A DNA stretch of 64,000 nt, taken from Acidobacteriota bacterium (GTDB taxonomy: Bacteria > Acidobacteriota > UBA6911 > RPQK01 > JAJDTT01). Each line of letters opens with the position of its first letter. The first letter of the stretch is position 1. Below, one piece after another: positions 33,582 through 56,248 of this stretch. Position numbers and translations under genes: made by a program. The notes under the pieces were generated by a model. The model was not told the origin of the DNA and searched no databases. It worked only from the letters and a program-made list of their open reading frames with translations. The stretch is from the NCBI GenBank assembly GCA_963668095.1, contig OY764083.1, forward strand, positions 738,322 to 802,321, read 5' to 3'.

Positions 33582-33624
33582 CTTCCGTCTGAAAAACGTT
33601 GGAATACCCCTCCGAAAAAGGCGT

Positions 33625-33745: not shown

Positions 33746-34289
33746 CCTATTTTGCGACCTGCCCCGGATGTCCCAAGATTGTCGGGTGCCACTAAGGGAG
33801 AAGGTGGTCTGGCTCCACCTGCGCAGGAGATATTTTGAGCGACATTGGAGAAGATTCGAAAACAGGATTCCCGGAAAACTCTTCGGGATCTGGACTGAGT
33901 CTCCAATCCAGGCTTCTCATTTTGGTGCTCTGCCTGATTGTGGGAACAGTAGTCCTGCCGGGGAGACGAAACTATCTACGGAACCGCGACCATCGCAATT
34001 TCGGCTTGTAGGAGTCGCCGGCGCCTCGGGGCTTCCCGGAGGCCCAAGTTGGTATGAACCAAGCCGAAATCAGCCGCCTCGAGTTCTCGGCGGATTTCGG
34101 TCTGATCCGCGAAAATTGGATCGCCGTAGACGGTCTCTGGCGGCCTGAAACGAAGGGACGAAAGGTAAAGCATAGGCCCCTGAACGGTGGCCAGGCTCCC
34201 TGTGCGGAGGCGCACGTGTCAGGGAATTCCGTCCGGGTCACATCCTCGGCGCGAACCTCCGCCACTCTTCCTCCCGAAGAATCCGAAGA

Positions 34290-34726: not shown

Positions 34727-34821
34727 TCGACTCTCCTTTCCAATTATTGCGGATTACATACGAGAATTCAGGGCTGGTGCGCACTCGAACACCCAAAGCA
34801 ACGATTCAGAAAGGGACAGTC

Positions 34822-34905
34822 TCGATCCCCGGAACGCGATCCCCGGAACGGAACGGGAACGGAACGGAACGCGATCCCCGGAACGGAACGGGAACGGAAC
34901 GGAAC
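34822..34905. repeat. tandem repeat: 35-bp unit (cgatccccggaacggaacgggaacggaacggaacg) x2 plus partial copy, itself built of GGAACG hexamers; immediately preceded by a GGGACAGTC core
   Basis: Seen directly at about 34812-34912. Confidence 0.8.
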
Positions 34906-35086
34906 GCCTTATAAGACTAGAGCATCCCGCCCGGCATCAGAGCAGTGGACCTTTGGCAAATGGAAGCACGTCCGGCGGACCTTCCGCATATTGGGAGGAC
35001 AATTCAGTCTATTGGACGAGACACGTGCTCTGGGTCGTTCGGTGCCGCGGGGGCAGAATCGACGGACGGACGGAGATCAGGCGAGT

Positions 35087-36022
35087 CTACGGGACGAAGG
35101 CGTGCGAGCGTTGCTCCCGCAGGGAAAACATCACTCCGCCCAGTTGGGGGATGGGGTGTCGGCGACGTCGATATCGACCTTGCTTTCGATACGTCTCCAG
35201 CAGCTGCGCCACCTTCTCTGCCGGCCCGACGGCCAATCCGTCCGTCAGAAACCGCAGACGCCGGCGAAAGGCTCCGGCACAGGTAAATCCACGGCGCTCC
35301 TCCTGATCGAGGATCCACTGGGGGATCGCCGCCTGGTTCTCCCGGGTGGGGACAGCTCCTCGATAGTACAACCGGGACCGGTAACTGCTGTACACGTCCG
35401 TTCCGGGATCCGAGGGGAACAGCTCCTCCAGCGGAATCAGGCTTTGATTCTCGCCGGTGAGTCTCCAGCGGGCCGAGCCCCACTTCCATTGCTCGGGCCG
35501 CTTGACCAGTCCGGCCCGGACGGCGTTGAGTTCCACGTATAGAATCGCGTCTTGGACCGCTTCGGTTCCCAAGAGTTCCGGGTTCTTGAAACGTTCACTC
35601 CAAAAATGCCCTCGCCGTCGAAACTGGCGGTTGTACCACCGGGCATACTGCCCGTCCACGTTCTGCATTAGTTTCGAAACGTCAAAGAGACGCTGGTTGA
35701 ACGCCTCCCACTCGACGACGGTCCAATCGGCGGTTGTCTTCTCTGCCTTTTGCCCATAAAGCTTGTGGGCGATGTCCTCCAACTCCTCGCGGGACAAGGA
35801 GCGAGGCTTCTCAAAATGGACGACGAAGTGGAAGTGATTGCCCATGATCTGAAATGCGGCCAGACGACACCGGTAGACACTGACGTAGAACAACATCAGG
35901 TTCAGGAGTTTGCGACGGGCTTCGTGGTCTTCAAAGGGGAACCAATCGGTCCAGCCGGTGACTCGATTGGTGAGGTGATAGAAGGCGGCTTCTGAACTCT
36001 TGTGTCGCGCGGTTCGGGGCAT
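35087..36022 (-). CDS. REP-associated tyrosine transposase / IS200-like Y1 HuH transposase (TnpA_REP, long form)
   Basis: 311 aa from ATG 36022 (track start 36028 GTG). HuH motif IMGNHFHFVVHF. Conserved YARWYNRQFRRRGHFWSERFKNPEL block. Catalytic-Tyr block AILYVELNAVRAGLVKRPEQWKWGS. N-terminal AAFYHLTNRV. This matches the RAYT/PF01797 pattern. Confidence 0.7.
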   Translation of the reverse strand: MPRTARHKSSEAAFYHLTNRVTGWTDWFPFEDHEARRKLLNLMLFYVSVYRCRLAAFQIMGNHFHFVVHFEKPRSLSREELEDIAHKLYGQKAEKTTADWTVVEWEAFNQRLFDVSKLMQNVDGQYARWYNRQFRRRGHFWSERFKNPELLGTEAVQDAILYVELNAVRAGLVKRPEQWKWGSARWRLTGENQSLIPLEELFPSDPGTDVYSSYRSRLYYRGAVPTRENQAAIPQWILDQEERRGFTCAGAFRRRLRFLTDGLAVGPAEKVAQLLETYRKQGRYRRRRHPIPQLGGVMFSLREQRSHAFVP

Positions 36023-36243
36023 GAGCACGGTCTTCGGTGAATCGGACTCGCGAGGGAGTCGGTTCGCACCTCTGATGACAACAACGACTCAGAACCAAGA
36101 AAGGCGAAGGAACCTCACGAAAACCAGCACACCTCCCGTCTCTGAATGAAACCGAAGAAACGAGAAAAATAGACTGTCCCCTCTTTTCTGGGCGCGGAAT
36201 TCGACCTGGACGCCCTCCACTCCCATCTCCACCCGGATTCCGC

Positions 36244-37002
36244 TTAACCGTCCCGAAAACGATCGGCCGTGTCCTGTGGCTCGTATCCCAGGTCCCTCCG
36301 GGCGTTGTCCAGTGACCGGTAGTTCCACTTGTTGTCGGAGACCACGTAGTAGATCCCGAACTTCAGATCCTCAGGCGCATCGATACAGCGGCGGATCATC
36401 TGGGCGATGTCCGCGTGACTGCACCAGACCGAAAAATCCCGAACCTCGTTGGGCCGGTCGTTCCAATGAACCCGGCCGATACGGAGGCAGATCATGGACA
36501 GGCCCCACTGATCAGAGAAGAAGCGGCCCAATGTTTCGCCGAACGCCTTGCTGCAACCGTAGAGGCCGTTGGAGCGAATCAGAGACGTGTCCAGCAAGTC
36601 CCAGCCGGCCACTTCTTCGTAACGTCCCTCGACCAGGGCATCGTAGGGCGGATGCCGTTCCCACTCACTGACGGCGGCTCCGCTACTGGCGAAAATGACC
36701 CTCTCGACCCCCGCCGTCCGGGCCGCCTCGAACACGTTGTAGGTTCCGATGATATTGTGCGGGAGGATGTCCTCCCAGGTGGGGTCCCCCTGAGCCATGG
36801 CGGCCAGGTGGACGACGGTCTCCACTCCCTCGAATGCCGGCCGGATGGTCTCCAAATCGGCAATGTCCGCCTGCAGGCACGGAAGGCCTTCCACCGGGCG
36901 CCGGTTCAAGGCGCTCAGCTCGTACGCATCTCCCAGTTCCCGCCGGCAAATCTGCCCGATGAGTCCGCTCATGCCCGTGATCAATACTCTTTTCTTGGCC
37001 AT
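36244..37002 (-). CDS. NAD-dependent epimerase/dehydratase-family protein (extended SDR)
   Basis: 252 aa, ATG verified at 37002. MAKKRVLITGMSGLIGQ Rossmann motif. YGCSK catalytic YxxxK. Confidence 0.75.
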   Translation of the reverse strand: MAKKRVLITGMSGLIGQICRRELGDAYELSALNRRPVEGLPCLQADIADLETIRPAFEGVETVVHLAAMAQGDPTWEDILPHNIIGTYNVFEAARTAGVERVIFASSGAAVSEWERHPPYDALVEGRYEEVAGWDLLDTSLIRSNGLYGCSKAFGETLGRFFSDQWGLSMICLRIGRVHWNDRPNEVRDFSVWCSHADIAQMIRRCIDAPEDLKFGIYYVVSDNKWNYRSLDNARRDLGYEPQDTADRFRDG

Positions 37003-37140
37003 GCGGTGATTCTACCGCAGCTCCTCCCGACTCCGCCTGCCGGGTCTTACCGCCGGTTTTCTTTCCCACTTCCAGCCCCTATGATGGGCTCTCGTCTCGA
37101 CACCCAATTGAATCAGCATCCGACGAACGGGAGCGGCAAC

Positions 37141-37875
37141 ATGTTTCGGAACAAGATCCTCGAGAGAATCAAAAGAGGTGAGAAGGCTCTGGGCCTGTTC
37201 ATGTCGGACCCTTCCGAAGAACTGGTGGAAATGGCCGGGCGTATGGGGCTGGATTTCGTCGGCTTCGACGGTCAGCACTCGCCCCTCGCTCCAGAACGGG
37301 TCGGCACCCTTTGCACCATCGCGGACGGATTCGACGTCACTCCCACAATGCGGGTACCCGATGGGAACGAGAGCACGCTCCTGTCCTACCTGGACCGGGG
37401 AATTCGCAGTATCACCGTGCCCAATATCCAAACCCGGGAAGAAGCCGAAAAACTGGTCAAATACACCTATTTCGCACCTCTGGGTCTGCGCAGTTCCACC
37501 AGCTACCGCATGGTCATGAACCAGGAGGGGAAAGACCGCAACACCCTCTTCCAGGAAGTCAACGCCAACCTGATGATCGTTCCCCAATTAGAGAGCGTGA
37601 CTTCAATCCAGAACTTGGACGAGATCCTTCAGGTGGAGGGGATCGACTATTTGGGAGGCGGCCCCGAAGACATGGCCCAGTCCATGGGAATTCCGGGCCG
37701 GCACGACGATCCGAGGGTGACCCGGATCTACAAGGAGATGGAGCAGAAGGTGCATGCCGCCGGAAAGTTCATGGCGGGAGACTACATCGAGTCGGTGAAC
37801 GTCTTCTGGAACGTCAAGGGCGCATTGGAGCAACTGCTTGAAAGCCACGGCCGCCGATCTCTCATGACCTGGTAG
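37141..37875 (+). CDS. HpcH/HpaI-family 2-keto-3-deoxy-acid aldolase
   Basis: ATG 37141 (MFRNKILERIKRGEKALGLFMSDPSEELVEMAGRMGLDFVGFDGQHSP...). The track ORF 36415..37875 has a spurious N-terminus. Family-typical beta-alpha barrel blocks (MIVPQLESV..., GPEDMAQSMGIPG). Confidence 0.75.
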   Translation: MFRNKILERIKRGEKALGLFMSDPSEELVEMAGRMGLDFVGFDGQHSPLAPERVGTLCTIADGFDVTPTMRVPDGNESTLLSYLDRGIRSITVPNIQTREEAEKLVKYTYFAPLGLRSSTSYRMVMNQEGKDRNTLFQEVNANLMIVPQLESVTSIQNLDEILQVEGIDYLGGGPEDMAQSMGIPGRHDDPRVTRIYKEMEQKVHAAGKFMAGDYIESVNVFWNVKGALEQLLESHGRRSLMTW

Positions 37876-37891
37876 TAAAGACCACCATCCC

Positions 37892-38845
37892 GTGAAATAC
37901 ATCGTCAATCTGCCCATCGCCGGCCCCTTGGCGGCTCCCCGCAGCCTTTCGACTCTGGCTCGGGCCGCAGAGGCCCAGGGAGTCGACGTCATCTCCGCCA
38001 GCGAGCGCCTGGTCCTGCCCCGATCCGTCGAGACCCGCTACCCGTACGGCGCCACGGGCAAGTTTCCCGGCGGAACCGCCAGCCAGAAAAGCCTTGAGAT
38101 GCTGATGACCTTGGCCTTTCTCTGCGGCCAGACGTCCCGGGTCCGCATCCTGACCTCGGTGCTGGTTCTGCCCTACCGGGACCCGATCCTGGCGGCCAAG
38201 ATGCTGGCCACCCTGGACGTCCTCTCCCAGGGCCGGCTCATCGTGGGTTGCGGCGTCGGCTGGATGCGGGAGGAGTTCGAAGCCCTGGGCTTGCCGGTCC
38301 GATTCGAGGACCGGGGCCGAGCCTCGGACGAGTACCTGAGGGGCATGCAGGAACTCTGGTGTAGCGAGAACCCTGAGTTTAAAGGCAACCATGTTCGATT
38401 TTCCGGGATCGAATTCCATCCTCAGCCGGTGCAGCGTCCTCATCCGTCCTTCTGGTTCGGCGGAGAGAGCACTGCGGCCCTCCGGCGCGTCGCCCGCTTC
38501 GGGGACGGATGGATGCCCATTGCCGGAAATCCCCGGCATCCACTCGACCACGACCGGCAACTCGCCCGGGCGATTGAAAGACTGCACCGCATGGTGGAGG
38601 CGAAAGGCCGGGATCCGGACAAGATCCACGTTCGTTTCGGCGGAGGGTGGAACGAATCCCCGCGCCGGAGCCCGGGAGGAAAGAGACTGCCCATGAGCGG
38701 CACTGTCCAGCAGGTGGCCGGAGACATCCGCCGCTATCAGGATATGGGAGTCGACCACATGGGAGTGGGTCTGCTGACCGACGATCTGTCCGAGAGCCTG
38801 GAACGGATCGAGCGCTTCATGACGAGTGTCGCGCCCTCGGTCTAG
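37892..38845 (+). CDS. LLM-class (luciferase-like) flavin/F420-dependent oxidoreductase
   Basis: 317 aa, apparent GTG start. GRLIVGCGVGWMREEFEALG and FWFGGES blocks typical of the luciferase-like monooxygenase family. Confidence 0.7.
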   Translation: MKYIVNLPIAGPLAAPRSLSTLARAAEAQGVDVISASERLVLPRSVETRYPYGATGKFPGGTASQKSLEMLMTLAFLCGQTSRVRILTSVLVLPYRDPILAAKMLATLDVLSQGRLIVGCGVGWMREEFEALGLPVRFEDRGRASDEYLRGMQELWCSENPEFKGNHVRFSGIEFHPQPVQRPHPSFWFGGESTAALRRVARFGDGWMPIAGNPRHPLDHDRQLARAIERLHRMVEAKGRDPDKIHVRFGGGWNESPRRSPGGKRLPMSGTVQQVAGDIRRYQDMGVDHMGVGLLTDDLSESLERIERFMTSVAPSV

Positions 38846-38858
38846 AAATCTGCGCGAT

Positions 38859-40091
38859 TCACACTCTCAGGAAGATTCTCTGCCGATACATCCACCAGCA
38901 GACCAGCCAGAACGTGAGCCCCACCATCATCGACTCGAGGGCAGGCTCATTGGCGGCTCCCCAGAGCTGGAAGATGCTCTGCCCCAGGTGTGTCCGCAAG
39001 GTTGCTGCGGTCCAGTTGGGTAGAAGCATGCTCATCGCGTAGATCGCTATGGAGTTGGTTCCCACCACCACCAGAGGGAAGGTCCAGCGACGGATCCCGG
39101 CCACGTCAATTAGGACGTAGAGTCCTCCCAGGATCAGGCAGCACCAAGCCGTCGAAAAGATGGCCCAGGAGGGTGTCCAGATCCGCTTTATGAGTGGACA
39201 GACACCCGTCCAATCGAGGAACAGTCCAACGGCCAGACCAAGAACCCCCGCTGCCAGAAGTGTTCTGAGCTTGGTTTGGACCGAGCGGTGCGAACGCAGG
39301 AACCCGCCGACCATCAGGCCGAAAAGCATGGTGGCCAGGGAGGGAATGAAATTGATGGTCGCATACCCTCCACCGTTGTAGACGAACGGCTCCTGGCGTG
39401 GCAGCTGGTTCAGCAGCCAGCCGTCAATGGCATGACCGACGTTGGCGTTTTTATGCCAGGCTGGAGACACTTCCGCCAGATATTGCTGAGCCCACTCCGG
39501 TTGAACACCCACCTCAGGCGAGCCGCTCGGAAGCTCGACACCGGCTCCGGGATACAGGACGTACAACATCCAGGTCAGGATCAGGACGAATACTGCCCCA
39601 AGGGACTGACTTCGAAGTCTTCGACGCCAGAACAAAAAGAGGAAAGTGTAGCCCAGCCCGATCTGCGTCAGGACATTCATTAGTGACCAACTGGTGCTGG
39701 AGAGCGAATCGGAAATCAGGAAGATGCCCAGAAGAATGAGGATGGCGGATCTCCAGAGGGCGTGGCGCAGCATCTTGCCGTACGAGTGCCCATGTCCAGA
39801 TCGTTTCGCATAGGAGTAGGCCATCGACACTCCCACCATAAACATGAAGGAGGGTTGGATCAGATCCCAGTAGCCGAATCCGGTCCAGGGGACGTGGGAA
39901 AACTGATAATGAACCGTCTGCCAGAAGGAAGAGTCCGGGTTTGTTGCCAGATGATTCTTGGCCGTCTCCCTGAGACCGAAACCCTTGAAGGCGAGGGAGA
40001 CCATGATCAGTCCACGATAGGCGTCAAGAGACAGCAACCTCTGTTGCTGCCAATAGCTTCTTGCGACCTCGGATTCACTGTGGGATCCCAC
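38859..40091 (-). CDS. DUF1624/DUF5009 (heparan-alpha-glucosaminide N-acetyltransferase-like) integral membrane acyltransferase-family protein
   Basis: About 410 aa with about 10 TM helices. The hallmark N-terminal QRLLSLDAYRGLIMV is typical of HGSNAT-like proteins. The start codon is non-ATG in the track and the coordinate is uncertain by 1 nt. Confidence 0.6.
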   Translation of the reverse strand: MGSHSESEVARSYWQQQRLLSLDAYRGLIMVSLAFKGFGLRETAKNHLATNPDSSFWQTVHYQFSHVPWTGFGYWDLIQPSFMFMVGVSMAYSYAKRSGHGHSYGKMLRHALWRSAILILLGIFLISDSLSSTSWSLMNVLTQIGLGYTFLFLFWRRRLRSQSLGAVFVLILTWMLYVLYPGAGVELPSGSPEVGVQPEWAQQYLAEVSPAWHKNANVGHAIDGWLLNQLPRQEPFVYNGGGYATINFIPSLATMLFGLMVGGFLRSHRSVQTKLRTLLAAGVLGLAVGLFLDWTGVCPLIKRIWTPSWAIFSTAWCCLILGGLYVLIDVAGIRRWTFPLVVVGTNSIAIYAMSMLLPNWTAATLRTHLGQSIFQLWGAANEPALESMMVGLTFWLVCWWMYRQRIFLRV

Positions 40092-40230
40092 GAACGCCCC
40101 TCCGTAGAGTCGATATCAAATTTACGATGATCAGCATGCTGGCACCGTTCGCATGGTGATTCAACTGACCGTAGATGGCCTTTCTGCTGCGATAGGCTGC
40201 CGCTGAACGGCACGGCCCAGCAGAGGGCCG

Positions 40231-40391
40231 AAGGGGAAAAGGGTGACTGTCCCCTGCTCGGGAAAAAGGTGACGAAGGGGAAAAGGGTGACTGTCCCCTG
40301 CTCGGGAAAAAGGTGACGGGAAAAAGGTGACTGTCCCCTTCTCGCGACGGACGCGCGGGACCTTCTCGCGACGGACGGACGGACGCGCGGA
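40231..40391. repeat. BIME-like tandem cluster: 44-bp unit (gaaggggaaaagggtgactgtcccctgctcgggaaaaaggtgac) x2 plus a partial third copy, followed by ctcgcgacggacg repeats
   Basis: Seen directly. The unit carries the GACTGTCCCC core (reverse orientation of GGGGACAGTC) three times. Confidence 0.8.
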
Positions 40392-40427
40392 GGGAAATTA
40401 GGAGCGGTTGATGGCCGGACCGACGTT

Positions 40428-40928
40428 TTGCCCTCGAGGGGATCGGTTCACGACGAGACGAATGTTGATTTGAGTGCTCCTTTCGCGGTCGGCTGGGCGC
40501 GGGCAACCTGCTCGAGGCGGGTGAAGGCCAGCATTCTGTTTCGCCATCGCAACAGCGAAGGAGAACAGCGAAGGAGTACCCACAGGAGAAGCGGAGTCAA
40601 CGCGGCGACCGTACCGTCAACCCGGTTTGTCACCTTTGCCGAACAGGGAGAAGGTAAGTTTGGAACCGGAGTTGCCAATGCCAATCCTTCCGCCAAATCA
40701 GCTCACGTCACCTTTACTGCCAAGAACGCCGCGGGGCGATTACTGGCCAGCGTCGACAGGACACTGTTGCCTGGAGGCCATGACGCGCAGGGCATGTCGT
40801 CGCTGTTCGGTGCCACCAGCTTTACCGGATCGCTCGAAGTCACCTCTTCAGTGCCCATCGTCAGTCTTTCCATTAATATCGAAGCTGATCCCGTATTCTC
40901 CTCTTTGCCTCCTGGGGAAATTGAATAG
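40428..40928 (+). CDS. possible 5'-truncated or remnant gene for a secreted beta-rich protein
   Basis: The ORF starts right after the repeat cluster with a non-ATG codon. Only the C-terminal about 110 aa (…VTFTAKNAAGRLLASVDRTLLPGGHDAQGMSSLFGATSFTGSLEVTSSVPIVSLSINIEADPVF) look protein-like, with lower GC. May be a fragment. Confidence 0.25.
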   Translation: MPSRGSVHDETNVDLSAPFAVGWARATCSRRVKASILFRHRNSEGEQRRSTHRRSGVNAATVPSTRFVTFAEQGEGKFGTGVANANPSAKSAHVTFTAKNAAGRLLASVDRTLLPGGHDAQGMSSLFGATSFTGSLEVTSSVPIVSLSINIEADPVFSSLPPGEIE

Positions 40929-40971
40929 AAGCTGGAGTCCCATCCGGATTTTGGAGGAACTACAAAGTGAA

Positions 40972-42192
40972 TCAGACCGATGCGACCGTTTCCCGCCGGC
41001 AGATTCCGGCCAGGAGCCCCATCCCCTCCCGAATGACCGCGGGCGGATCGTAACCGAAGCAGAGCCTGGCGCAATTGTGCCCCGAGTTACCCTCGGGTGA
41101 CAGGCGCACCCCGGGGAAGATGATAATGCCCTGGCGAAGTGCCTGGTCGGCAACCGCCTGCATGTCGACTCCAGGAGCCAAAGTCAGCCAGATGAACAGG
41201 CCGCCCCGCGGACGGCTCCAAGTAGCCCCGAAGTCCGACGGCTCTCCGAACCCCGCCTCCAGTCCCTCCAGCATGGCGTCCCGCTTGCGGCGCAGAATGC
41301 CGTTGGCGGACCGGATGTGCTCTTCCAGGTGGCTCTCGGCATAGCGATGGACGGCCAACGCTCCCAACTGGCTCACTCCCCCTCCGCTCTTGATGGCCGA
41401 GATCCGGTCCAGGAGCGGTGACGGTCCGGCCAGGTAGCCGAGGCGGACTCCCGGCCCGATGATCTTGGAGAAGGATCCGACATAGACGACCACGCCCTCG
41501 TTATCTAGGGCGGCAATGGCCGGGACCGGCTCCCCCTCAAAACGAAGGTCCACGTAGCAATCGTCCTCCAGGATGGCGATCCCGTGCCGTTGGGCCGTCT
41601 CCAACAGGTGCTGCCGGCGCTCCAGGCTCATGACCCATCCCAGAGGATTCTGGAAAGTCGGAATCGTGTAGATGAGCTTGACTCGTTTCCCCTCGCCGGA
41701 CGCGCTTCGAATCGCCCCTTCCAGGGCATTGGGCAGGAATCCTTCCTGGTCGCAGGCCACCCCCCGGATATCCGCACCGAATCGTCTCAGGATTCCCAGA
41801 GTCCCCGGATAGGTGAACTCTTCGGTCAGGACCACCTCGCCCGGGTTCATCAGAGCCTCGATGACCATGTGATTGGGCTGACTGGAGCCATCCCCCAGAA
41901 TGACGTCCTCCGACGAGACGGAAATACTTCGGTCCCGCGCCAATTTCTCAGCGATGTACTCCCGCAGGGGCGGATACCCCGAGGGATGAGGGTATTTGGC
42001 CAGTCCCCGCCCTTCCTCTTTCAGACCCACCCGGAGAGCTTCAGCCAACTCCGCCAACGGCAGTGAGTCGGGATCGGGATAGGCCACGCCGAAGTCATAG
42101 GGTGCGCCCGGATGGGCCTGCCGCGGCCCCGCCTGTCGCGGTATCGAGCGGGAATAAACGTCCTCTTGGGCGAACAAGCTCCGTTTCGGCAT
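40972..42192 (-). CDS. PLP-dependent aminotransferase (class I/II fold, 2-aminoadipate/aromatic aminotransferase-like)
   Basis: 406 aa from ATG 42192 (MPKRSLFAQEDVYSRS...). PLP-lysine context YVGSFSKIIGPGVRLGYL. The track ORF (to 43929) has a long spurious N-terminus antisense to the SBP gene. Confidence 0.8.
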   Translation of the reverse strand: MPKRSLFAQEDVYSRSIPRQAGPRQAHPGAPYDFGVAYPDPDSLPLAELAEALRVGLKEEGRGLAKYPHPSGYPPLREYIAEKLARDRSISVSSEDVILGDGSSQPNHMVIEALMNPGEVVLTEEFTYPGTLGILRRFGADIRGVACDQEGFLPNALEGAIRSASGEGKRVKLIYTIPTFQNPLGWVMSLERRQHLLETAQRHGIAILEDDCYVDLRFEGEPVPAIAALDNEGVVVYVGSFSKIIGPGVRLGYLAGPSPLLDRISAIKSGGGVSQLGALAVHRYAESHLEEHIRSANGILRRKRDAMLEGLEAGFGEPSDFGATWSRPRGGLFIWLTLAPGVDMQAVADQALRQGIIIFPGVRLSPEGNSGHNCARLCFGYDPPAVIREGMGLLAGICRRETVASV

Positions 42193-42282
42193 GGTTGGAT
42201 CCTCCCGGCGCCCGATCCGAATCCGCTTGCGGCGTCCGACCGGCTCTGCCATTCTGCCAGAACATCGACGATCGCCGATGAA

Positions 42283-44301
42283 ATGTCCAGCAGAATGTCG
42301 ACATTCCTCCCAGCCCTCATGGCCTTTGCATCCCTTGGCTGCCAACCGGATCTCGCCTCTGACGCTCCTGTTTCCTCGCCCTATCTGATCTACGAAGAGA
42401 CCCCGCAAGGGGCCGAGATCGTCCTCGACCCCGAGCGCCGGCCCCGCCGGTTCCAGGAGTCCCCGATGCTGGCCCGCCTGGTGGCCCGGGGGAAGCTCCC
42501 ACCGGTGGAAGAACGGCTTCCGGAGAATCCGTTGGTCCTCCATCCCACCGAGTCCATCGGCCGGTACGGAGGGACCTTGAAATCCGGCATGATCGCCAAG
42601 GGTCTCAACGAAGAGATGAACCGGATCATGGGAATGGAGAAATTCCTCTTCTACGACGCAACCGGAACCCGGGTCGTCCCCAGCGTGGCCGAAGACTGGC
42701 GCCAGAGCGAGGATGGCCGCCGGCTCCGAATTCAACTGCGGCGAGGCATGCGCTGGTCCGACGGCCACCCCTTCACCGCGGAGGACGTGCGCTTCTATTG
42801 GGAAGATATCCACGCCCACCCGGACGTATTTCCCTACCCCGATCCGGACCTGACGGTCAACGGCAAAACGATGCAGTTCCAGGTCCTGGACCCACACACG
42901 GTGCTCTTCCGATTCGACGATCCCCATCACCGGCTCGTGGAGATCGTGGCCTCCGCCTTCAGCCGGTTCGCCGGAAGCGTCTTCGGAGAGTTCCTCTGGG
43001 GACCGTACGCACCGGCGCATTATCTCAAGCAGTTCCATCCGGGCTACGTGTCCCCGGAGGATCTCAATCTCAGAGTGGGGGAATCCCAGCAGGAAGACTG
43101 GGTCGGCCTGATGAAGCTCCGGAACAACTACGCTCTGAACCCCGAGCTGCCGGTCCTGATGCCCTGGAGGACCGTGCAGGCGCGGGACACGGCCGTATGG
43201 GTCCTGGAGCGGAACCCTTATTTCTGGGAGGTGGACACCGAGGGCAATCAACTCCCTTACATCGACCGCTGGATCCTGACCAAGGCCACGGACCGCGAAG
43301 TCGTCAACCTGCGGGCCATTGCCGGCGAATACGACTTCCAGTACCGGTATCTGGACCTCAAGAACCTGCCCGTCTTTCTGGAGCATGCCGGGGAGGAGAA
43401 CTACAACGTCTATCTCAACCCCTCCCTGTCGGGGATGCTCTTCGGCTGCTATTTCAATCTGGCATGGGAGGGAGACCCCGAGGTCTCCAGATTGATTCGC
43501 GATGCGAACTTCCGCCGCGCGCTCTCCCTGGGCCTCCGCCGGACTCAGTTCAGTGACGCCTTTTACTTCTCGTTGGCCAGACCCGGCGCGGCCGGACCGT
43601 TTCCGACACACCCGGAGCATCCAGGGGAGAGCTATCGGACCCGCTGGTCCACCTACGATCCGGACCAGGCCAATGCCCTGCTGGACGATCTCGGACTCCA
43701 CGAGCGGGACGACGAAGGATACCGGATGCGAAGCGACGGACGCGGCCGGCTTCGAATCCGGATTCCCGCTCCGTCCGACCGCATTGAGATCCCCAAGTTC
43801 CAGATGTTGGAACAACAAATCGAAGAGCTGGGAATCGCCGTCGACCTTCCCATCCTGGGACGAACCCTCTGGTGGGAGGAGATGCGGGCCAACCGCGCCC
43901 AGATCACCTGCTGGGCGAACCCGACCCAATCCGTCTGGGGCAGCCAGCCAATGTATGTCCTTCCCGTCAGCCGATTATCTCCCATCGGTCCCTTGTTCGG
44001 GCTCTGGTTTTCCAGTAACGGAAGACTGGGAAAGATGCCCACCGATCCGAAGATCCTCCGGGCCCTGGAACTCTATCGGCTCGGCCGAACCCGGACGGCT
44101 TCGGAAAGGGCCCGGATCGGCCGGGAGATCTGGTCGATCGCCATCCATGAGCAGTGGATGATGAGCACCGTGGGGCGGGCGCCCACTCTGGTGCGGATCT
44201 CCGACCGGCGGCTGGGCAACATCCCGGCAGGGCTCTGCACCCAGGACAATTGCCGCGCTCCTTCCACAGGTCGTTTGGAGACCCTGTATTGGAAGGAGTA
44301 G
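42283..44301 (+). CDS. ABC transporter substrate-binding protein, family 5 (oligopeptide/dipeptide/nickel type), lipoprotein
   Basis: Start ATG 42283 (MSSRMSTFLPALMAFASLGCQPD, lipobox LGC). About 670 aa. Family-5 SBP blocks (LVLHPTESIGRYGGTLK, WSDGHPFTAEDV). Confidence 0.8.
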   Translation: MSSRMSTFLPALMAFASLGCQPDLASDAPVSSPYLIYEETPQGAEIVLDPERRPRRFQESPMLARLVARGKLPPVEERLPENPLVLHPTESIGRYGGTLKSGMIAKGLNEEMNRIMGMEKFLFYDATGTRVVPSVAEDWRQSEDGRRLRIQLRRGMRWSDGHPFTAEDVRFYWEDIHAHPDVFPYPDPDLTVNGKTMQFQVLDPHTVLFRFDDPHHRLVEIVASAFSRFAGSVFGEFLWGPYAPAHYLKQFHPGYVSPEDLNLRVGESQQEDWVGLMKLRNNYALNPELPVLMPWRTVQARDTAVWVLERNPYFWEVDTEGNQLPYIDRWILTKATDREVVNLRAIAGEYDFQYRYLDLKNLPVFLEHAGEENYNVYLNPSLSGMLFGCYFNLAWEGDPEVSRLIRDANFRRALSLGLRRTQFSDAFYFSLARPGAAGPFPTHPEHPGESYRTRWSTYDPDQANALLDDLGLHERDDEGYRMRSDGRGRLRIRIPAPSDRIEIPKFQMLEQQIEELGIAVDLPILGRTLWWEEMRANRAQITCWANPTQSVWGSQPMYVLPVSRLSPIGPLFGLWFSSNGRLGKMPTDPKILRALELYRLGRTRTASERARIGREIWSIAIHEQWMMSTVGRAPTLVRISDRRLGNIPAGLCTQDNCRAPSTGRLETLYWKE

Positions 44302-44370
44302 ACTCTGCCGTGGGACAACACCGATCCTCTGCAGACCACCGTCCGGCGTGACGGCACGCGAAAACCGATC

Positions 44371-45363
44371 ATGGTTGCCTATCTGCGCCGCCGCCTGCTC
44401 CAAGCGACCCTGACGATCTGGGCCATCAGCATCGTTTCGTTCGTTCTCATCGAGCTGCCACCGGGGGACTTCGTCACCGCCTACGTGGACCGGCGCGCCT
44501 CCCAGGGCATTCCCCTGCCGGCGGAGGAGATCCAGATCCTGAGAGTCCGTTATGGCTTGGACCAACCCGCAGCCCAGCGCTATCTGATCTGGATGGGTCG
44601 GTTGCTCCGCGGTGACCTCGGCGTCTCCTGGATTCGCGGGCAGCCGGTTTCGGAGATCATCTCCGATCGCCTCTGGTTGACCATGGCCGTATCTCTGGCC
44701 GCCATTCTGCTCACCTGGGCGGTGGCTCTGCCGGTGGGTGTCTACTCGGCCATTCGCCAATATTCGGCGGGAGACTATCTGTTCACACTCCTCTGCTTCG
44801 CCGGTGTCGGCGTCCCCAACTTCCTGCTCGGCCTCCTCGTCATGTACCTGGGATTCGTCTGGTTCGATGCGGATGTCGGCGGGCTCCTCTCATCCCAGTA
44901 CGTGGACGCCCCCTGGAACGCCGCCAAGCTTTGGGACCTGATCAAGCATCTTCCCCTACCGGCCCTGGTGCTGGGCCTGGGCGGAACGGCCTACATGATT
45001 CGGATCCTCCGTGCCAATCTGCTGGATGAACTGTCCAAACCGTACGTTCTCACCGCCAGGGCCAAGGGGCTCTCGGAGATCCGGCTCCTTCTCAAGTACC
45101 CCCTGCGCGTGGCCCTGAACCCGTTCGTCAGCACCGCCGGCTATCTGCTTCCCTATCTGGTCTCGGGCAGCGTCATCGTCTCCATGGTCATGAGCCTTCC
45201 CACCGTGGCGCCAGTGTTATTGTCGGCCCTCATGGACCAGGATCTTTACCTGGCCGGCACCCTGGTGCTCCTGCTGGGCGTGCTTACCGTGGTGGGAACG
45301 CTGATTTCGGATCTGCTTCTGCTCTGGATCGATCCCAGGATCCGGTTCCGGGGACAGTCATGA
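44371..45363 (+). CDS. ABC transporter permease (DppB/OppB-type)
   Basis: 330 aa, 6 TM helices, binding-protein-dependent permease signature region. Its last about 8 codons lie in the tandem repeat at 45340-45363. Confidence 0.85.
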   Translation: MVAYLRRRLLQATLTIWAISIVSFVLIELPPGDFVTAYVDRRASQGIPLPAEEIQILRVRYGLDQPAAQRYLIWMGRLLRGDLGVSWIRGQPVSEIISDRLWLTMAVSLAAILLTWAVALPVGVYSAIRQYSAGDYLFTLLCFAGVGVPNFLLGLLVMYLGFVWFDADVGGLLSSQYVDAPWNAAKLWDLIKHLPLPALVLGLGGTAYMIRILRANLLDELSKPYVLTARAKGLSEIRLLLKYPLRVALNPFVSTAGYLLPYLVSGSVIVSMVMSLPTVAPVLLSALMDQDLYLAGTLVLLLGVLTVVGTLISDLLLLWIDPRIRFRGQS

Positions 45364-45455
45364 ATCCAGAGCCACGGTCTTGGGGACAGTCATGAATCCG
45401 CCGGTTTTGGGGTCAGTCACGTGAATCCGCCGGTTTTGGGGACAGTCACGAATCC
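45340..45455. repeat. four tandem about 30-bp units (gaatcc-N-ggttttGGGGACAGTCAyg) spanning the permease-1 stop and the permease-2 start
   Basis: Seen directly: ccggttccggggacagtcatga / atccagagccacggtcttggggacagtcatg / aatccgccggttttggggtcagtcacgtg / aatccgccggttttggggacagtcacg. Confidence 0.8.
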
Positions 45456-46560
45456 GGAGCCGGAGGAGATTGAATTCCAGTTCGAAACGGCGTCCTCCTG
45501 GCAACTGACCTGGAGGCGCTTCCGCCGGCACAAGCTGGCTCTCGTCTCCCTGATCCTCCTGGGATTCCTTTACCTGGTGGTTCTGCTGGCCGATTTACTT
45601 GCCACCGCCGACCCCACCCGAATCGATGCCAGCCGAGCCTACCTGCCTCCCCAACCCATCCACCTGCGGGACGACAGCGGATTCAATCCGCATGTCCACC
45701 CGGTCTCCGGGGATTGGGACCACCGCATTTTTCGACGAGTCCATCACATCGATCCGCGTCGGAGGCTCCCGGTCCGCCCGCTGGCCAGAGGCTACGAATA
45801 CGAGTTTCTGGGTCTGATTCCGACCGATCTGCACCTAATCGGGGTTGAGGGTGAGACCCAGGCCCTATCGCTGCTGGGTACGGACGGGCTGGGACGCGAC
45901 CTCTTCTCCCGCCTGATCCACGGCACCCGGACCTCGCTCACCATCGGTCTGGCGGGAGTCATCCTGAGCCTGGTTCTGGGCGTCGTGCTGGGCGGAATCT
46001 CCGGGTTCTACGGAGGCGCGGTCGACACCGTGATCCAGCGAGTCATCGAGATCCTTCTCTCCATTCCCACCATTCCCCTGTGGCTGGGCCTGGCCGCCGC
46101 CATGCCCCGGGACTGGGGAGTGCTCCGCGTCTATTTTATCCTCACGGTCATCCTGTCCCTCATCGGCTGGACCCGCCTGGGCCGGGAGGTCCGCGGCCGT
46201 TTCCTGGTGCTCAGGCAGGAGGACTACGTCCTGGCCGCCGAACTGATGGGCGCCAGCCGGGCCTCCGTCATCCGGCGCCACATGGTGCCCGCTATCACCA
46301 GTCACGTCATCGCCACCGCGACCCTCGCCCTGCCGGCGATGATCATCGCCGAAACCTCCCTCAGCTTTCTGGGACTCGGTCTGCGTCCGCCGGCCATCAG
46401 CTGGGGAATCCTGCTGCAAGGGGCCCAGCAGGTGCAGGTCCTGGCGCTGAGGCCCTGGTTGTTGGCTCCTGCAGTGCCGGTCATCGTGTCCATTCTGGCC
46501 TTCAATTTCGTGGGAGACGGCCTGCGTGACGCCGCGGACCCCTATGCCAGGAGAACTTGA
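45421..46560 (+). CDS. ABC transporter permease (DppC/OppC-type)
   Basis: 379 aa. The only in-frame start is GTG 45421, inside the 4th repeat unit. N-terminal WRRFRRHKLALVSLILLGFL typical of DppC. Permease signature ALAGEPRILIADEPTTALDV is not here; the EAA-like loop is present. Confidence 0.75.
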   Translation: MNPPVLGTVTNPEPEEIEFQFETASSWQLTWRRFRRHKLALVSLILLGFLYLVVLLADLLATADPTRIDASRAYLPPQPIHLRDDSGFNPHVHPVSGDWDHRIFRRVHHIDPRRRLPVRPLARGYEYEFLGLIPTDLHLIGVEGETQALSLLGTDGLGRDLFSRLIHGTRTSLTIGLAGVILSLVLGVVLGGISGFYGGAVDTVIQRVIEILLSIPTIPLWLGLAAAMPRDWGVLRVYFILTVILSLIGWTRLGREVRGRFLVLRQEDYVLAAELMGASRASVIRRHMVPAITSHVIATATLALPAMIIAETSLSFLGLGLRPPAISWGILLQGAQQVQVLALRPWLLAPAVPVIVSILAFNFVGDGLRDAADPYARRT

Positions 46561-46570
46561 AGCTCAACCC

Positions 46571-47692
46571 ATGGCTGAGAACTGGATCCTTTCGGTCAAC
46601 GACCTGAAGACCCATTTCTTCACTCGGGAGGGGGTCGTCCGGGCGGTGGACGGCGTCGGCTTCGACCTCGCCCCCGGACAGGTGCTGGGCATCGTCGGGG
46701 AGAGCGGCTGCGGCAAGAGCGTCACCGCCCTGTCCATCCTGGGTATCGTGGATCATCCGGGACGCATCGTCGAAGGCCGAATCCTGCTCCGCCCGGCGCA
46801 GGGGGGGCCTCCCGTGGATCTGGCTCGGCTGAACCCCAAGGGACGCCGGATCCGATCGATCCGAGGCGGGGAGATCGCCCTCATCTTCCAGGAGCCCATG
46901 ACCTCGCTGAGTCCGGTGCACACCATCGGCCAGCATGTTTCAGAAACCATTCGGCTGCATGGCGGCATGGGCCGGCGAGAGTCCCGGGAGCAGGCGGTAG
47001 AGGTTCTGCGCTCCGTGGGGGTCCCCGATCCCGAGCGAGGGGCGAAGCTCTACCCGTTTCAGCTCAGCGGCGGGCTTCGCCAGCGCGCCCTCATCGCCCA
47101 GGCCTTGGCCGGAGAACCCCGAATCCTCATCGCCGACGAACCGACGACGGCCCTGGACGTGACCACCCAGGCCCAGATTCTGGATCTGCTCCGGGATCTC
47201 CAGAAGCGGAGAGGGATGGCCATCATTCTCATTACCCACGACCTGGGCGTCATTGCGGAGATGGCCGACCAGGTCCTGGTGATGTACTTGGGTAGAGGCG
47301 TGGAGAGAGCGCCCGTCGATCGCATCTTCCACTCGCCCGAGCATCCCTACACCCGTGCCCTCCTGAACTCCATGCCCGGTCAGGGCGCCGCCGCGAAGCA
47401 GTCGCTTCCCAGTATCTCCGGCTCCGTGCCGCCCGCCTTCCGGCGGCCCTCCGGGTGCCCGTTCCATCCCCGTTGCCTGGAGTTCCTGGACGGAAGCTGC
47501 AACCGAATGGAACCGGAACCGGTCATGGTCCACCCGGACCACGAGGTGCTCTGCCTGCGCCGGGAGCCGGAAGAGCACGGTCATCCATCTTCGCTGGATG
47601 AACTGTCCGAAAACGGACAGTTTGTATCGAAACCGGACACTTTGTCCCGAAATCGGACACTTCAACCCCGAACCGAGAAGAATAGAGATTGA
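46571..47692 (+). CDS. ABC transporter ATP-binding protein (DppD/OppD-type)
   Basis: Start taken at ATG 46571 (MAENWILSVNDLKTHFFTREGVVRAV...). Earlier in-frame GTG 46526 / ATG 46544 would overlap the permease. Walker A GESGCGKS, signature LSGGLRQR, Walker B ILIADEPTTALD. The unusual about 30-aa C-terminal tail is encoded by 20-bp tandem repeats. Confidence 0.8.
   Translation: MAENWILSVNDLKTHFFTREGVVRAVDGVGFDLAPGQVLGIVGESGCGKSVTALSILGIVDHPGRIVEGRILLRPAQGGPPVDLARLNPKGRRIRSIRGGEIALIFQEPMTSLSPVHTIGQHVSETIRLHGGMGRRESREQAVEVLRSVGVPDPERGAKLYPFQLSGGLRQRALIAQALAGEPRILIADEPTTALDVTTQAQILDLLRDLQKRRGMAIILITHDLGVIAEMADQVLVMYLGRGVERAPVDRIFHSPEHPYTRALLNSMPGQGAAAKQSLPSISGSVPPAFRRPSGCPFHPRCLEFLDGSCNRMEPEPVMVHPDHEVLCLRREPEEHGHPSSLDELSENGQFVSKPDTLSRNRTLQPRTEKNRD
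47605..47670. repeat. three tandem 20-bp units (cgaaaNcggacaNtttgtNN) inside the 3' end of the first ABC ATPase gene
   Basis: Seen directly: ccgaaaacggacagtttgtat / cgaaaccggacactttgtcc / cgaaatcggacacttcaacc. They encode the low-complexity tail ELSENGQFVSKPDTLSRNRTLQ. Confidence 0.7.
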
Positions 47693-48714
47693 ATCCTGAG
47701 ATTCTTCTGGACGTCAGGAACCTGGCGAAACACTTCCCGGTCCGATCCGGCCCGTTCCAGCGGCCGGACGGCAAGGTCCAAGCCGTCACCGACGTCAGTT
47801 TTCACCTGAGCCAGGGAGAGTCCCTGTCACTCGTGGGGGAAAGCGGCTGCGGAAAGACCACGCTGGCGCGGACTCTTCTCCGGGGTTACGAGGCCACGGC
47901 CGGATCGGCTTGGTTCCGCACCGAAAAGGACGATGTCGTCGATTTGCTGAAACTCCCTCGCCGGCGGCTCAAACCATTGCGGCGGCAACTGCAGATGGTC
48001 TTCCAGGACCCCTACTCCTCCCTGAATCCCAGGATGACGGTTCAACAGATCATCGGCGAACCCTTGCGCATTCATGGCGAAGAGCTGGGCATCACCGCCC
48101 GGGAGGCACGCCGGGAACGTGTCCGTGAATTACTGTTGCAGGTGGGCCTCCGGCCCGAAGCGGCCCGGCGCTATCCCCATGCCTTCAGCGGCGGGGAGAG
48201 GCAGCGGATCGGAATAGCTCGAACTCTCGCCACCCGGCCCCGGCTGGTGATCGCGGACGAACCGGTTTCGGCACTGGACGTCTCCGTGCAGGCCCAGATC
48301 CTCAACTTGATGTTGGAACTGCAGAAGCGGTACCGGATCGGCACCCTGCTCCTGACTCACAACCTGATGGTGGTCCGCCAGGTCAGCGACCGGGTCGCCG
48401 TCATGTACCTGGGGAGGATCATGGAGACGGCCCCCACCGAGACCCTCTTCAAAAGTCCCTCACACCCGTATACGGCGGCTCTTCTCGACGCGGTCCCGCG
48501 GCCCGACCCCCGCGTCCGGAACCGTTCCAGAATCAAATTGAGCGGCGAAGTGCCCAGCCCGCGCGACCCGCCCCCTGGATGTCCCTTCCATCCCCGGTGC
48601 GCCCACGCCCAGGATCGATGCCGCAACGAGATGCCGGCCCTGGAGAAAGTCGCACCGGGTCACCGAGTCCGCTGCCATCTCTGGCGCGAACTGGACTTGA
48701 AAGGAATGGACTGA
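47689..48714 (+). CDS. ABC transporter ATP-binding protein (DppF/OppF-type)
   Basis: 341 aa. Apparent TTG start overlapping the previous stop (TTGA). Walker [10 protein letters not shown], signature FSGGERQR, Walker [14 protein letters not shown]-terminal oligopeptide-ABC C-domain with CPFHPRC. Confidence 0.8.
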
Positions 48715-54625: not shown

Positions 54626-56248
54626 TTGCTGGAGCGCACCTATCGCCGCCGCGTCCCGCCGCAGCAAGCCGTGACCCCGGAACTGGCGCGGCATCTGACA
54701 TCGGCATCGCACGACCTGGGCCGGGAGGTCGGTGTCCTGATCGGGCGCGACGGCATCGTCCGAAACGTGATCGTCGGCAACGCCACCGGTCTCATGCTGC
54801 CGGACATCGGCCGTCTCCGCGGCGGGACCGGGCGATTTCGCGGACTGCGGCTGCTGCACACGCGCCTCCGGGGTTCGGCCCTCAACCACGATGACCTGAA
54901 CGACCTGGTCCTGCTTCGCCTCGATCTGGTCGCCGTCATCGAGGTCTTGGAAGGGGGCTGGCCGGGAAGGCTGGAAGCCGCCTATCTCGATCCCGGATCC
55001 CTGGCCGGCAGCGGCAACGGCGACGCAGCGGCCGAACCCTTCCTGAGAATCCGATCCCGTTCCGTTCATGACCTGGACCTGGATTTCCAGGCCACGATCC
55101 AGGCGCTGGAGCGGGAGTTCGCCCGGCTGGCCCGAAGGACCCGGGGACCGAAAGGCGCCGAGCGGGTCATGGTCGTCGGCCTCCGCCCCGAGGACGCCCA
55201 TTTTGCCGAAACTCTGGAACTGGTCCGCTCCGCCGGCGCCACCATTGCCGGACGGATGCGCCAACGCCGGCCCAGAATCCATCCGCGCACTGTTCTGGGC
55301 AAGGGCAAGCTGGAGGAGCTGGTCTTGGAGAGCATGCGCTGCAACGCCACCGCGGCCATCTTCGACATCGATCTGAAACCGGCGCAGGCACGTGCGTTCG
55401 AAGACCGGACCGGACTCAAGGCGGTGGACCGGACCCAGCTGATCCTGGACATTTTCGCCCAACGAGCCCGCAGCGCCGACGGCAAACTCCAGGTCGAACT
55501 GGCTCAACTGAAGTACTCCTTGCCTCGTCTGACCGAGAAGGACGAGGGGTTGTCCCGTCTCACCGGCGGCATCGGGGGACGGGGACCGGGCGAAACGGTC
55601 ATGGAAATCGGCCGGCGCCGGATTCGAACGCGAATCCGCCGGCTGGAGAAGCGGGTCGAACACCTCTCGCGTCAGCGCGAGCTCCGGCGCAGGCGTCGGC
55701 GGCGCCGGGGGCTTCCGGTGCTTTCCATCATCGGCTACACCAACGCCGGCAAGAGCACCCTCCTCAACGCCCTGACCAACAGCGTCATAAAGGCCGAGGA
55801 CAAGCTCTTCATGACCCTCGACCCCACCAGCCGGCGCCTTCGTTTCCCCCGGGAGGGAGAGGTTCTCATCACCGACACGGTCGGATTTATCGCCGAGCTG
55901 CCTCCGGACCTGATCTCCGCCTTCCGGGCAACACTGGAAGAGCTTTCGGACGCCAACCTCCTGCTCCACGTCATCGATGCCGCCGACCCGGAGATGGACG
56001 ACAAGATCCGGGCGGTGGAGATGTTGCTGGTCGATCTGGATCTGAACCGGATCCCGTTGGTGAAGGTGCTGAACAAGATCGATCTGTTGCCCCCGCAACA
56101 GGTGAATGCCCTCTGCGGCCGGATCGGTGGACTGGCGGTGAGCGCGACTCGACGCGAGGGGCTGGCGGAACTGGTGAAAACCGCTGAGGACCGGCTGGAA
56201 AAACCTGAGGCTCCCGGGTTGAATCCGATCTCGGGAATGTCGATTTAA
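54626..56248 (+). CDS. hflX: GTPase HflX
   Basis: 540 aa; apparent TTG start. HflX N-terminal domain, then G-domain motifs G1 GYTNAGKST, G3 DTVGF, G4 NKID. Confidence 0.8.
   Translation: MLERTYRRRVPPQQAVTPELARHLTSASHDLGREVGVLIGRDGIVRNVIVGNATGLMLPDIGRLRGGTGRFRGLRLLHTRLRGSALNHDDLNDLVLLRLDLVAVIEVLEGGWPGRLEAAYLDPGSLAGSGNGDAAAEPFLRIRSRSVHDLDLDFQATIQALEREFARLARRTRGPKGAERVMVVGLRPEDAHFAETLELVRSAGATIAGRMRQRRPRIHPRTVLGKGKLEELVLESMRCNATAAIFDIDLKPAQARAFEDRTGLKAVDRTQLILDIFAQRARSADGKLQVELAQLKYSLPRLTEKDEGLSRLTGGIGGRGPGETVMEIGRRRIRTRIRRLEKRVEHLSRQRELRRRRRRRRGLPVLSIIGYTNAGKSTLLNALTNSVIKAEDKLFMTLDPTSRRLRFPREGEVLITDTVGFIAELPPDLISAFRATLEELSDANLLLHVIDAADPEMDDKIRAVEMLLVDLDLNRIPLVKVLNKIDLLPPQQVNALCGRIGGLAVSATRREGLAELVKTAEDRLEKPEAPGLNPISGMSI

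Follow-up and report, generated by a model that had tools for sequence, protein, structure and literature searches.

Tandem amplification of a stop/start junction between two permease genes of an Acidobacteriota bacterium and its possible function as a relay of mini-cistrons

Introduction

Where does the second of two permease genes begin, and can its translation still depend on the first, when the DNA at their junction consists of tandem repeats? The question is raised by a Dpp/Opp-type ATP-binding cassette transporter operon of an Acidobacteriota bacterium from an uncultured lineage. We analyzed a stretch of 64,000 nucleotides (nt) of this organism (assembly GCA_963668095.1, contig OY764083.1, positions 738,322 to 802,321), which we call the window and whose positions are used throughout. 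In the window a DppB/OppB-like gene (permease 1) and a DppC/OppC-like gene (permease 2) meet in an array of four repeat units. An initial annotation of the window had left two explanations standing side by side: a repeat inserted between translationally linked genes and was co-opted, or the N-terminus of permease 2 is repeat-derived and the true start lies elsewhere. From the comparison of related sequences we regard it as probable that the array arose when the native stop/start junction of the two genes was amplified in tandem, specifically in this lineage, with a relay through two mini-cistrons as the mechanism which would keep them coupled. Translational coupling and short tandem duplication are both known phenomena; their combination would be new as a variant and does not constitute a new kind of system.

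The array and the start of permease 2

Permease 1 (44371-45363, plus strand as are all features of the junction) encodes 330 amino acids with the Pfam domains BPD_transp_1_N and BPD_transp_1. The same length is found in the related contigs L002-L006, and L001 has 333 amino acids. By translation the protein ends with ...DPRIRFRGQS and the stop codon TGA at 45361-45363, as the initial annotation had read it, and the final 22 nt of the gene fall within the first repeat unit. Permease 2 (45421-46560; Pfam OppC_N and BPD_transp_1) has 379 amino acids when counted from GTG 45421. Thus, 57 nt separate the two genes, and they do not overlap directly. A family-5 binding protein and two ATPases surround the permease pair, which is the layout of Dpp/Opp-type operons according to Pfam and to the orthologous loci. 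All five operon genes of the window are intact and of orthologue-like length, and their GC content at third codon positions (GC3) is 0.78-0.81.

The array spans positions 45342-45461 with four head-to-tail units of 32, 27, 29 and 32 nt. Each unit follows the pattern GGGG(A/T)CAGTCA, then TG, CGTG or CG, and then AATCC. Unit 1 (45342-45373, 32 nt, CCGGTTCCGGGGACAGTCATGAATCCAGAGCC) is the native 5′ copy and carries the permease-1 stop overlapping ATG 45360 in an ATGA. Unit 2 (45374-45400, 27 nt, ACGGTCTTGGGGACAGTCATGAATCCG) has a second ATGA with ATG 45392 and TGA 45393-45395. In unit 3 (45401-45429, 29 nt, CCGGTTTTGGGGTCAGTCACGTGAATCCG) the overlap is GTGA, with GTG 45421 and TGA 45422-45424. 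Unit 4 (45430-45461, 32 nt, CCGGTTTTGGGGACAGTCACGAATCCGGAGCC) is the native 3′ copy; here ACG 45448-45450 stands in place of the ancestral ATG and is translated through as LGTVTNPEP. The comparison of unit 3 with unit 4 (CACGAATCC vs CACGTGAATCC) shows that two additional bases yield the GTG and its overlapping TGA at once.

The tandem character of these units, already described in the initial annotation, is borne out by shuffles, by Tandem Repeats Finder (TRF) and by a repeat search. The 18-mer GGGGACAGTCAYGAATCC occurs in exact copies at 45350, 45382 and 45438, and a fourth, variant copy GGGGTCAGTCACGTGAATCC lies at 45409-45428. In the shuffle control this 18-mer gave a mean of 0.23 matches with up to three mismatches, and none of 100 shuffles reached three. 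TRF reports the 3′ part of the array (45375-45450) with a period of 29, 2.7 copies and a score of 124, and the repeat search found four copies in register, beginning at 45334, with a unit identity of 62-97%.

Which codon then starts permease 2? GTG 45421 is the first canonical start in frame, and the public gene call (P0121, 379 amino acids) is identical. The initial annotation had placed this codon in the fourth unit and had taken it as the only in-frame start. It lies in the third unit, and TTG 45436 is in frame as well. This second candidate has neither an upstream G-rich tract nor a stop/start overlap, and our best call is that GTG 45421 is the sole plausible start and TTG 45436 the less likely one. 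Close homologues of permease 2 (86-92% identity) have 370 or 374 amino acids, and their N-termini read MNPEPEE or the one-residue variants MNREPEE and MNSEPEE, which align with TNPEPEE in the window. Residues 1-9 (MNPPVLGTV) are thus repeat-derived, and residue 10, the threonine encoded by ACG, stands for the ancestral methionine. Of the second explanation left by the initial annotation, the repeat-derived N-terminus therefore stands, whereas a true start elsewhere does not: the ancestral start is now ACG and no better start follows downstream. In short, permease 1 keeps its native stop, and permease 2 has lost the ancestral start and takes its present one, with nine N-terminal residues, from the repeat. 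This is also a warning for annotation, as start and residues are recent products of a repeat and a gene finder would never call the two tiny open reading frames (ORFs) described below.

Origin of the array

We compared thirteen related junctions, from metagenome contigs of the ENA (L001-L006), from metagenome-assembled genomes of Acidobacteriota and one labelled Aminicenantes (L007-L013), and from L207. Protein identity to the nearest relatives is about 94%. A single-copy junction with a 4-nt overlap of stop and start is present in 11 of the 13. The overlap reads ATGA in L001-L005, L007, L010-L013 and L207 and GTGA in L006, and the common form of the single-copy junction is ...ATCCGGTTCCGGGG(G/A)NNGTCATGAATCCGGAGCCGGAGGAG... 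The exact core GGGGACAGTCATGA is present once in L207 and once in L007, and the L207 junction, ATCCGGTTCCGGGGACAGTCATGAATCCGGAGCC, is likely the ancestral state. Unit 1 of the window differs from the single-copy junctions of L207 and L007 at only one to two positions.

When the orthologous junctions are aligned (alignment A1), a check which the initial annotation had suggested, the window has one extra block of 88 nt that is missing from the relatives; units 2 and 3 have no counterpart in the single-copy relatives. In all four units the native flanks, CCGGTT... and ...GAATCCG, are preserved. As judged from this alignment, no foreign DNA is present, and repetition of the native junction, three times over, accounts for the 88 extra bases. 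Since the units keep the native flanks and the relatives are single-copy, the array is an amplification of the native junction and not as an inserted element.

We suggest that the amplification proceeded in the following steps. The ancestor would have read ...ATCCGGTTCCGGGGACAGTCATGAATCCGGAGCCGGAGGAG..., with the TGA of gene 1 and the ATG of gene 2 sharing an ATGA. In the single-copy junctions of L207 and L007 the motif CCGG occurs twice, 30 nt apart, and the array likely began with an in-frame duplication of 30 nt between these two microhomologies. Such a duplication fits the first unit boundary in the relative L008 and, with two extra bases, the boundary in the window. Later duplications together with small indels would then have led to four units.

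Polymorphism among relatives

Expanded junctions are found in three distinct structures, namely in the window, in L009 (OZ253580.1) and in L008. L009 carries a 39-nt in-frame expansion, GGGGACAGTCATGAATTCGGAGGTCACGGGGACGGTCACGGGGACAGTCACGAATCC, and retains the ATGA; its genes keep the 4-nt overlap with an extended N-terminus of permease 2, which starts MNSEVTGTVTGTVTNPEPDE and has 383 amino acids. L008 has a third variant in which the permease-2 start is out of frame. In addition, L008 has suffered at 3275-3331 a deletion of 2.3 kb, equivalent to window 43122-45438, which removed the whole of permease 1 as well as half of the binding-protein gene. One end of the deletion falls in the array, so that the middle of the binding-protein gene is joined to the array. 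Among about 48 members of five protein clusters (two shorter entries of 148 and 318 amino acids were left out of this survey) only the lengths 379, 383 and 327 amino acids depart from 370/374 at this end. As L009 and L008 contain differently structured expansions, the locus is unstable.

At first sight these three structures could be taken as independent events backing a motif-driven mechanism. We rejected this view because in the window, L008 and L009 alike the ATG of the last unit is replaced by ACG, and because of a peculiar tract in L009. Downstream, L002 and L004 diverge from L009 by only 0.2-0.4% over 3.2 kb (99.6-99.8% identity), and around the junction (L009 9932-10037) there is a tract of about 105 nt with clustered private differences, several of which match alleles of the window and of L008. 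The tract indicates a short piece imported by recombination. The motif-driven view is also countered by L007 and L207, which contain the exact core in a single copy. Because the L009 tract partly matches the window and L008 alleles, the most likely history is a single origin of the expansions, followed by spread through recombination and subsequent diversification.

A possible relay through two mini-cistrons

Is permease 2 still coupled to permease 1? Overlaps of 4 nt support termination-reinitiation in other bacteria and archaea (PMC6728339, PMC10666635), and they are common in the window. In reporter work, gaps of about 20-38 nt nearly abolished termination-reinitiation, which required no more of the upstream gene than its final 15 nt (PMC10666635). 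In the window the gap of 57 nt is bridged by an unbroken chain of three 4-nt overlaps, ATGA 45360-45363, ATGA 45392-45395 and GTGA 45421-24. Translation of the sequence between them yields mini-ORF 1 (45360-45395, MNPEPRSWGQS, 11 codons), whose start overlaps the permease-1 stop, and mini-ORF 2 (45392-45424, MNPPVLGSVT, 10 codons), whose start overlaps the mini-ORF-1 stop at 45393-45395. The mini-ORF-2 stop TGA 45422-45424 in turn overlaps GTG 45421. Six to eight nt before each of the starts there is a GGGG. This tract is Shine-Dalgarno-like at best in a weak form and could pair weakly with the anti-Shine-Dalgarno sequence; several genes of the window have GGAGG-type sites.

Each unit would thus consist of the last approximately 15 nt of gene 1, a weak G-rich tract and an overlapping stop/start. 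We suggest that ribosomes which end translation of permease 1 reinitiate three times in succession, on mini-ORF 1, mini-ORF 2 and permease 2, so that the relay would carry translational coupling over a distance which otherwise abolishes it. Direct, weak initiation at GTG 45421 may contribute. In a predicted fold GTG 45421 lies within a 5-bp stem formed with unit 4 (CGUGA/UCACG), and a terminating ribosome would open this stem; the predicted pairing would therefore favour a dependence on an upstream ribosome. A relay appears to be the most economical reading because each unit duplicates the last nucleotides of gene 1 together with the overlap.

Several points weigh against a relay. The translation of the mini-ORFs and the handing over of ribosomes are both deduced from the sequence, and the efficiency could drop at each of the three reinitiation steps. 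The phases are unremarkable: the distances of 32 and 29 nt each leave a remainder of 2 when divided by 3 and are followed by 27 nt in frame. Because two of three phases per unit keep the path open, the chance of phases that permit a relay is about (2/3)^3 = 0.3. L008 has an out-of-frame allele in an operon which has lost 2.3 kb; therefore such arrays can be plain damage. The exact arrangement of the window was found in one genome only. Finally, the RNA of the array region folds only mildly more stably than shuffles (z = -2.3).

With respect to RNA structure, we also considered the array as a structured RNA and rejected this reading. Apart from the z = -2.3 of the whole array, the folding of single units, of the ancestral junction and of the dispersed copies described below gave z values of about -1.8 to +1.4 and no significant structure. 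A scan of the whole window with Rfam at the gathering threshold, together with a permissive scan of 33400-45600, returned two tRNAs only, and neither the array nor the dispersed motif was matched.

The most serious rival to a relay is that the amplification broke the coupling. The mini-ORFs would then be unused by-products, and ribosomes would initiate independently, and probably weakly, at GTG 45421 to make permease 2; alternatively, the operon would be drifting to loss. The gap of 57 nt exceeds the distances that abolish reinitiation, the unit phases agree with chance, the possible Shine-Dalgarno sequence is just a tract of four Gs, and the L008 allele is frameshifted and adjoins the 2.3-kb deletion of permease 1. 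On the other hand, the five operon genes are intact, with orthologue-like lengths and a high GC3 of 0.78-0.81, the L009 allele is in frame too, and three exact 4-nt overlaps in a chain are an arrangement known to support reinitiation. We regard the loss of coupling as possible but doubtful.

How does the proposed relay compare with known systems? Pairs of genes with a 4-nt overlap (Huber et al. 2019, PMC6728339, and its follow-up from 2023, PMC10666635) have the same overlap as the dppB-like/dppC-like junction of the single-copy relatives. Such pairs are enriched among the subunits of one complex, and the two permeases are such subunits. In the window each of the three junctions is an overlap of this kind, but the real genes no longer overlap. 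Instead there are three overlaps, and any working link would pass through two mini-cistrons. A further parallel comes from synthetic biology, in which bicistronic designs reportedly serve as translational couplers, as is said of the work of Mutalik et al. from 2013. Like the window, these designs have a leader cistron of about 10-16 codons, an internal ribosome-binding tract and a stop overlapping the next start. The candidate couplers of the window, known from sequence, differ in that they originate from a natural duplication, stand as a pair one behind the other and would receive ribosomes from an upstream gene, not from a 5′ untranslated region. Synthetic coupling elements have been described as well (PMC11602170).

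Slipped-strand tandem duplications and variable-number tandem repeats, including contingency loci in 5′ coding regions, share with the array the head-to-tail copies, the CCGG microhomology and the polymorphism. Unlike these, the array has long (27-32 nt), diverged units and gives no sign of rapid on/off switching. Changes of frame are buffered in the array because each unit brings its own stop and start. If the relay works, it would be a natural case of coupling handed through serial mini-cistrons, and overlapping stop/start modules would be duplicable, frameshift-buffering units, since two of three phases per unit reach the next gene.

A dispersed repeat with the same core

The core GGGGACAGTCA(C) of the junction also matches a dispersed intergenic repeat of this clade which resembles repetitive extragenic palindromic (REP) sequences. 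With up to one mismatch GGGGACAGTCA occurs 10 times in the window vs 2.0 expected. Dispersed copies with the core GGG(G)ACAGTC / GGGGACAGTC(A) lie at 33635, 33723 and 34813 on the plus strand and at 34311, 36180, 40253, 40297 and 40337 on the minus strand. They are flanked by A-runs and T-runs, are always oriented like the upstream gene and usually stand beside short tandem duplications. Stretches of 14-21 kb from the close relatives L007-L011 contain the exact core GGGGACAGTC 3-8 times, with the consensus GAGAAGGGGACAGTCACCTTTTCTC, and 1.27 Mb of distant loci contain it once. The dispersed motif is also written GGGGACAGTCACC.

The exact 17-mer AAGGGGACAGTCACCTT occurs in at least 120 metagenome stretches (L087-L206) from many habitats. 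Among the matches listed it typically forms inverted pairs 6-45 nt apart with flanking A and T runs. Most of the listed pairs form long hairpins followed by T runs and are thus REPIN-like (REP doublets forming hairpins) or terminator-like; some listed copies occupy the tip of CCACCAC.../...GTGGTGG hairpins, and others are arranged in tandem or are incomplete.

The likeness to REPs and REPINs (Di Nocera et al. 2013, PMC3733652; Bertels and Rainey 2011, PMC3116915) concerns this dispersed element only. It is a short near-palindrome (AAGGnGACnGTCnCCTT) with many extragenic copies, lies intergenically in the orientation of the upstream gene, and occurs as singletons, as inverted pairs or dimers 6-45 nt apart and in tandem clusters together with its flanks. 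Unlike REPs it has no consistent GTAG or CGTC tag among the listed instances, GTAG preceding the L011 variant only, and no associated tyrosine transposase turned up in the loci examined, whole genomes not having been scanned for one. A literature search for the motif returned unrelated primers only. We also considered the window copies as intrinsic terminators. A terminator scan does not support this, as it gave no enrichment over shuffles and flagged only the dispersed copy at 33623-33640. The array at the junction is not an insertion of this element, and the part they have in common is limited to the core of 11-12 nt.

Could this core nevertheless drive the instability of the junction? A REP-like reiteration, by hairpin slippage, a nicking transposase or gene conversion, would then act on the junction because it matches the repeat. 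The core is abundant in the window and in close relatives and rare in distant loci. Of the 51 tandem arrays in 240 kb of window and relatives, 16 are no more than 30 nt away from the 9-mer GGGACAGTC. The neighbourhoods of this 9-mer make up 0.9% of the 240 kb (binomial p about 9e-21, uncorrected for the fact that motif and tandem repeats both favour intergenic DNA). Nine of the 16 arrays adjacent to the core do not contain it. The change from T to C which destroyed the ancestral ATG gives a 12-nt match to the dispersed consensus GGGGACAGTCAC, and L009 and L008 reiterate 11-12-nt units of just the core. In addition, the L008 deletion ends in the array, the motif lies at a transposase-remnant junction in L002, and tandem reiteration of REP clusters along with the adjoining DNA has been described (PMC3733652).

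Yet the exact 11-mer is present in L007 and L207, which remain single-copy, and one synonymous change turns the GGGGGCAGTCA of the relatives into the exact core. The expanded alleles probably share one origin, as judged by the common ACG and the L009 tract, so the link between core and expansion is without independent replication. Further, the 30-nt founding duplication between CCGG microhomologies requires no special mechanism, and a transposase that could nick the core was not among the genes of the loci examined (whole genomes not scanned). We consider a core-driven instability unlikely. More speculative still, and in our judgement rather improbable, is the wider view that a REP-like family, undescribed and widespread, has GGGGACAGTCAC as its active core, generates local tandem duplications and makes the junction a self-buffering, fast-evolving locus tuning or switching permease 2 via the mini-ORF relay; a hypervariable array would be tolerated as each unit brings a stop, a start and a ribosome-binding tract. 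Independently of the junction, the repeat with AAGGGGACAGTCACCTT is a separate and perhaps more useful lead, as it is present in many metagenomes and tightly tied to tandem duplications.

Several further copies of the dispersed repeat were noted. In L002 (4433-4453, minus strand) and L003 (1927-1936, minus strand) the repeat GAGAAGGGGACAGTCACCTTCTCTC is located exactly at the ATGA junction of two transposase remnants, one being the N-terminal part of a DUF772 protein and the other a DDE domain of which only the last approximately 40 positions are left. Here the repeat marks an internal deletion or rearrangement of an insertion sequence. The interval between a gene for a 410-amino-acid protein and an aminotransferase gene (window 40191-40965, L008 612-1016) cannot be aligned; it carries different arrays of the dispersed repeat and is hypervariable. 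A perfect 35-nt tandem repeat (CGGAACGCGATCCCCGGAACGGAACGGGAACGGAA, 2.2 copies, with CGGAA-type sub-repeats) at 34823-34907 begins 2 nt past a dispersed core, in a 1.5-kb stretch without convincing genes. A variant of the core with one mismatch, GGGACTGTCACC, is found at 32704-32723, that is, 6 nt before the ATG of the gene 32724-33581.

Further alternatives

The amplification has another consequence for the two reading frames. The additional 88 nt place both permease genes in one frame with a single TGA and 19 sense codons between them (45361-45423). A fusion of the two permeases would need only one stop-codon mutation or one readthrough event in this interval. Both termini are cytoplasmic in this transporter family, and a fusion is thus topologically feasible. 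Together with the chained mini-ORFs, the polymorphism of the array and the identity of its core with a dispersed repeat, the common frame goes beyond what the initial annotation had noticed.

Permease 2 could accordingly be reached by a non-standard route, that is, a start at ACG 45448 or TTG 45436, a -1 frameshift from mini-ORF 2 (candidate site U UUG GGG, 45406-45412) or a readthrough fusion at TGA 45361. The frame relations are confirmed by translation, and the ACG preserves the ancestral spacing to the G tract. However, ACG is a very poor start codon in bacteria, TTG 45436 lacks an upstream G-rich tract, no frameshift-stimulating structure was identified, and an arrangement in the same frame arises by accident in one of three cases. 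We find such routes quite improbable.

Still less credence can be given to the insertion of a foreign repeat element between the genes with later co-option, the first of the two explanations in the initial annotation. Its premise of linked genes is well founded, as the 4-nt overlap in 11 of the 13 relatives demonstrates, and the core is indeed common to the junction and the dispersed intergenic repeat. The insertion itself is at odds with the data: the units have the flanks of the junction (CCGGTT.. / GAATCCG) and lack the A-tracts and T-tracts that border the dispersed element, so that they do not belong with REPs or REPINs, the single-copy junction of the relatives already holds the core, and the 88 extra bases are wholly explained as copies of the junction.

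Lastly, an assembly or sequencing artefact is scarcely credible, although all three expanded alleles come from metagenome-assembled genomes, since the units are diverged (62-97% identity) and not identical, three separate assemblies have related but different arrays, the L009 array sits in a tract of linked substitutions, and the reading frame of permease 2 is kept.

Minor observations

Two observations concern other junctions of the operon. At 45361-45372 and at 47690-47700 the intra-operon junctions both read TGAATCCnGAG, and both downstream proteins begin with MNPE. The motif is kept in L002 and not in L001; it may be a coincidence or a favoured context for reinitiation. Further, a second tandem repeat is located at a junction of the same operon (47607-47672, 20-nt unit CCGAAAACGGACACTTTGTA, 2.8 copies). 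It encodes the C-terminal tail of ATPase 1, is directly followed by the TTGA at which this gene overlaps ATPase 2, and contains the small hairpin GTCCGAAAACGGAC. This repeat is present in 10 of 10 related loci scanned (including L001, L002 and L007-L012) with small differences in sequence and copy number. Its period of 20 nt is not a multiple of three, and the length of ATPase 1 varies from 362 to 388 amino acids.

Elsewhere in the window, ARAGORN calls a tRNA-Val of 95 nt on the minus strand at 55641-55735. At this site the tRNA model of Rfam stays below the threshold, and the site lies within a long ORF of the opposite strand with good coding statistics. The tRNA call is probably a false positive.

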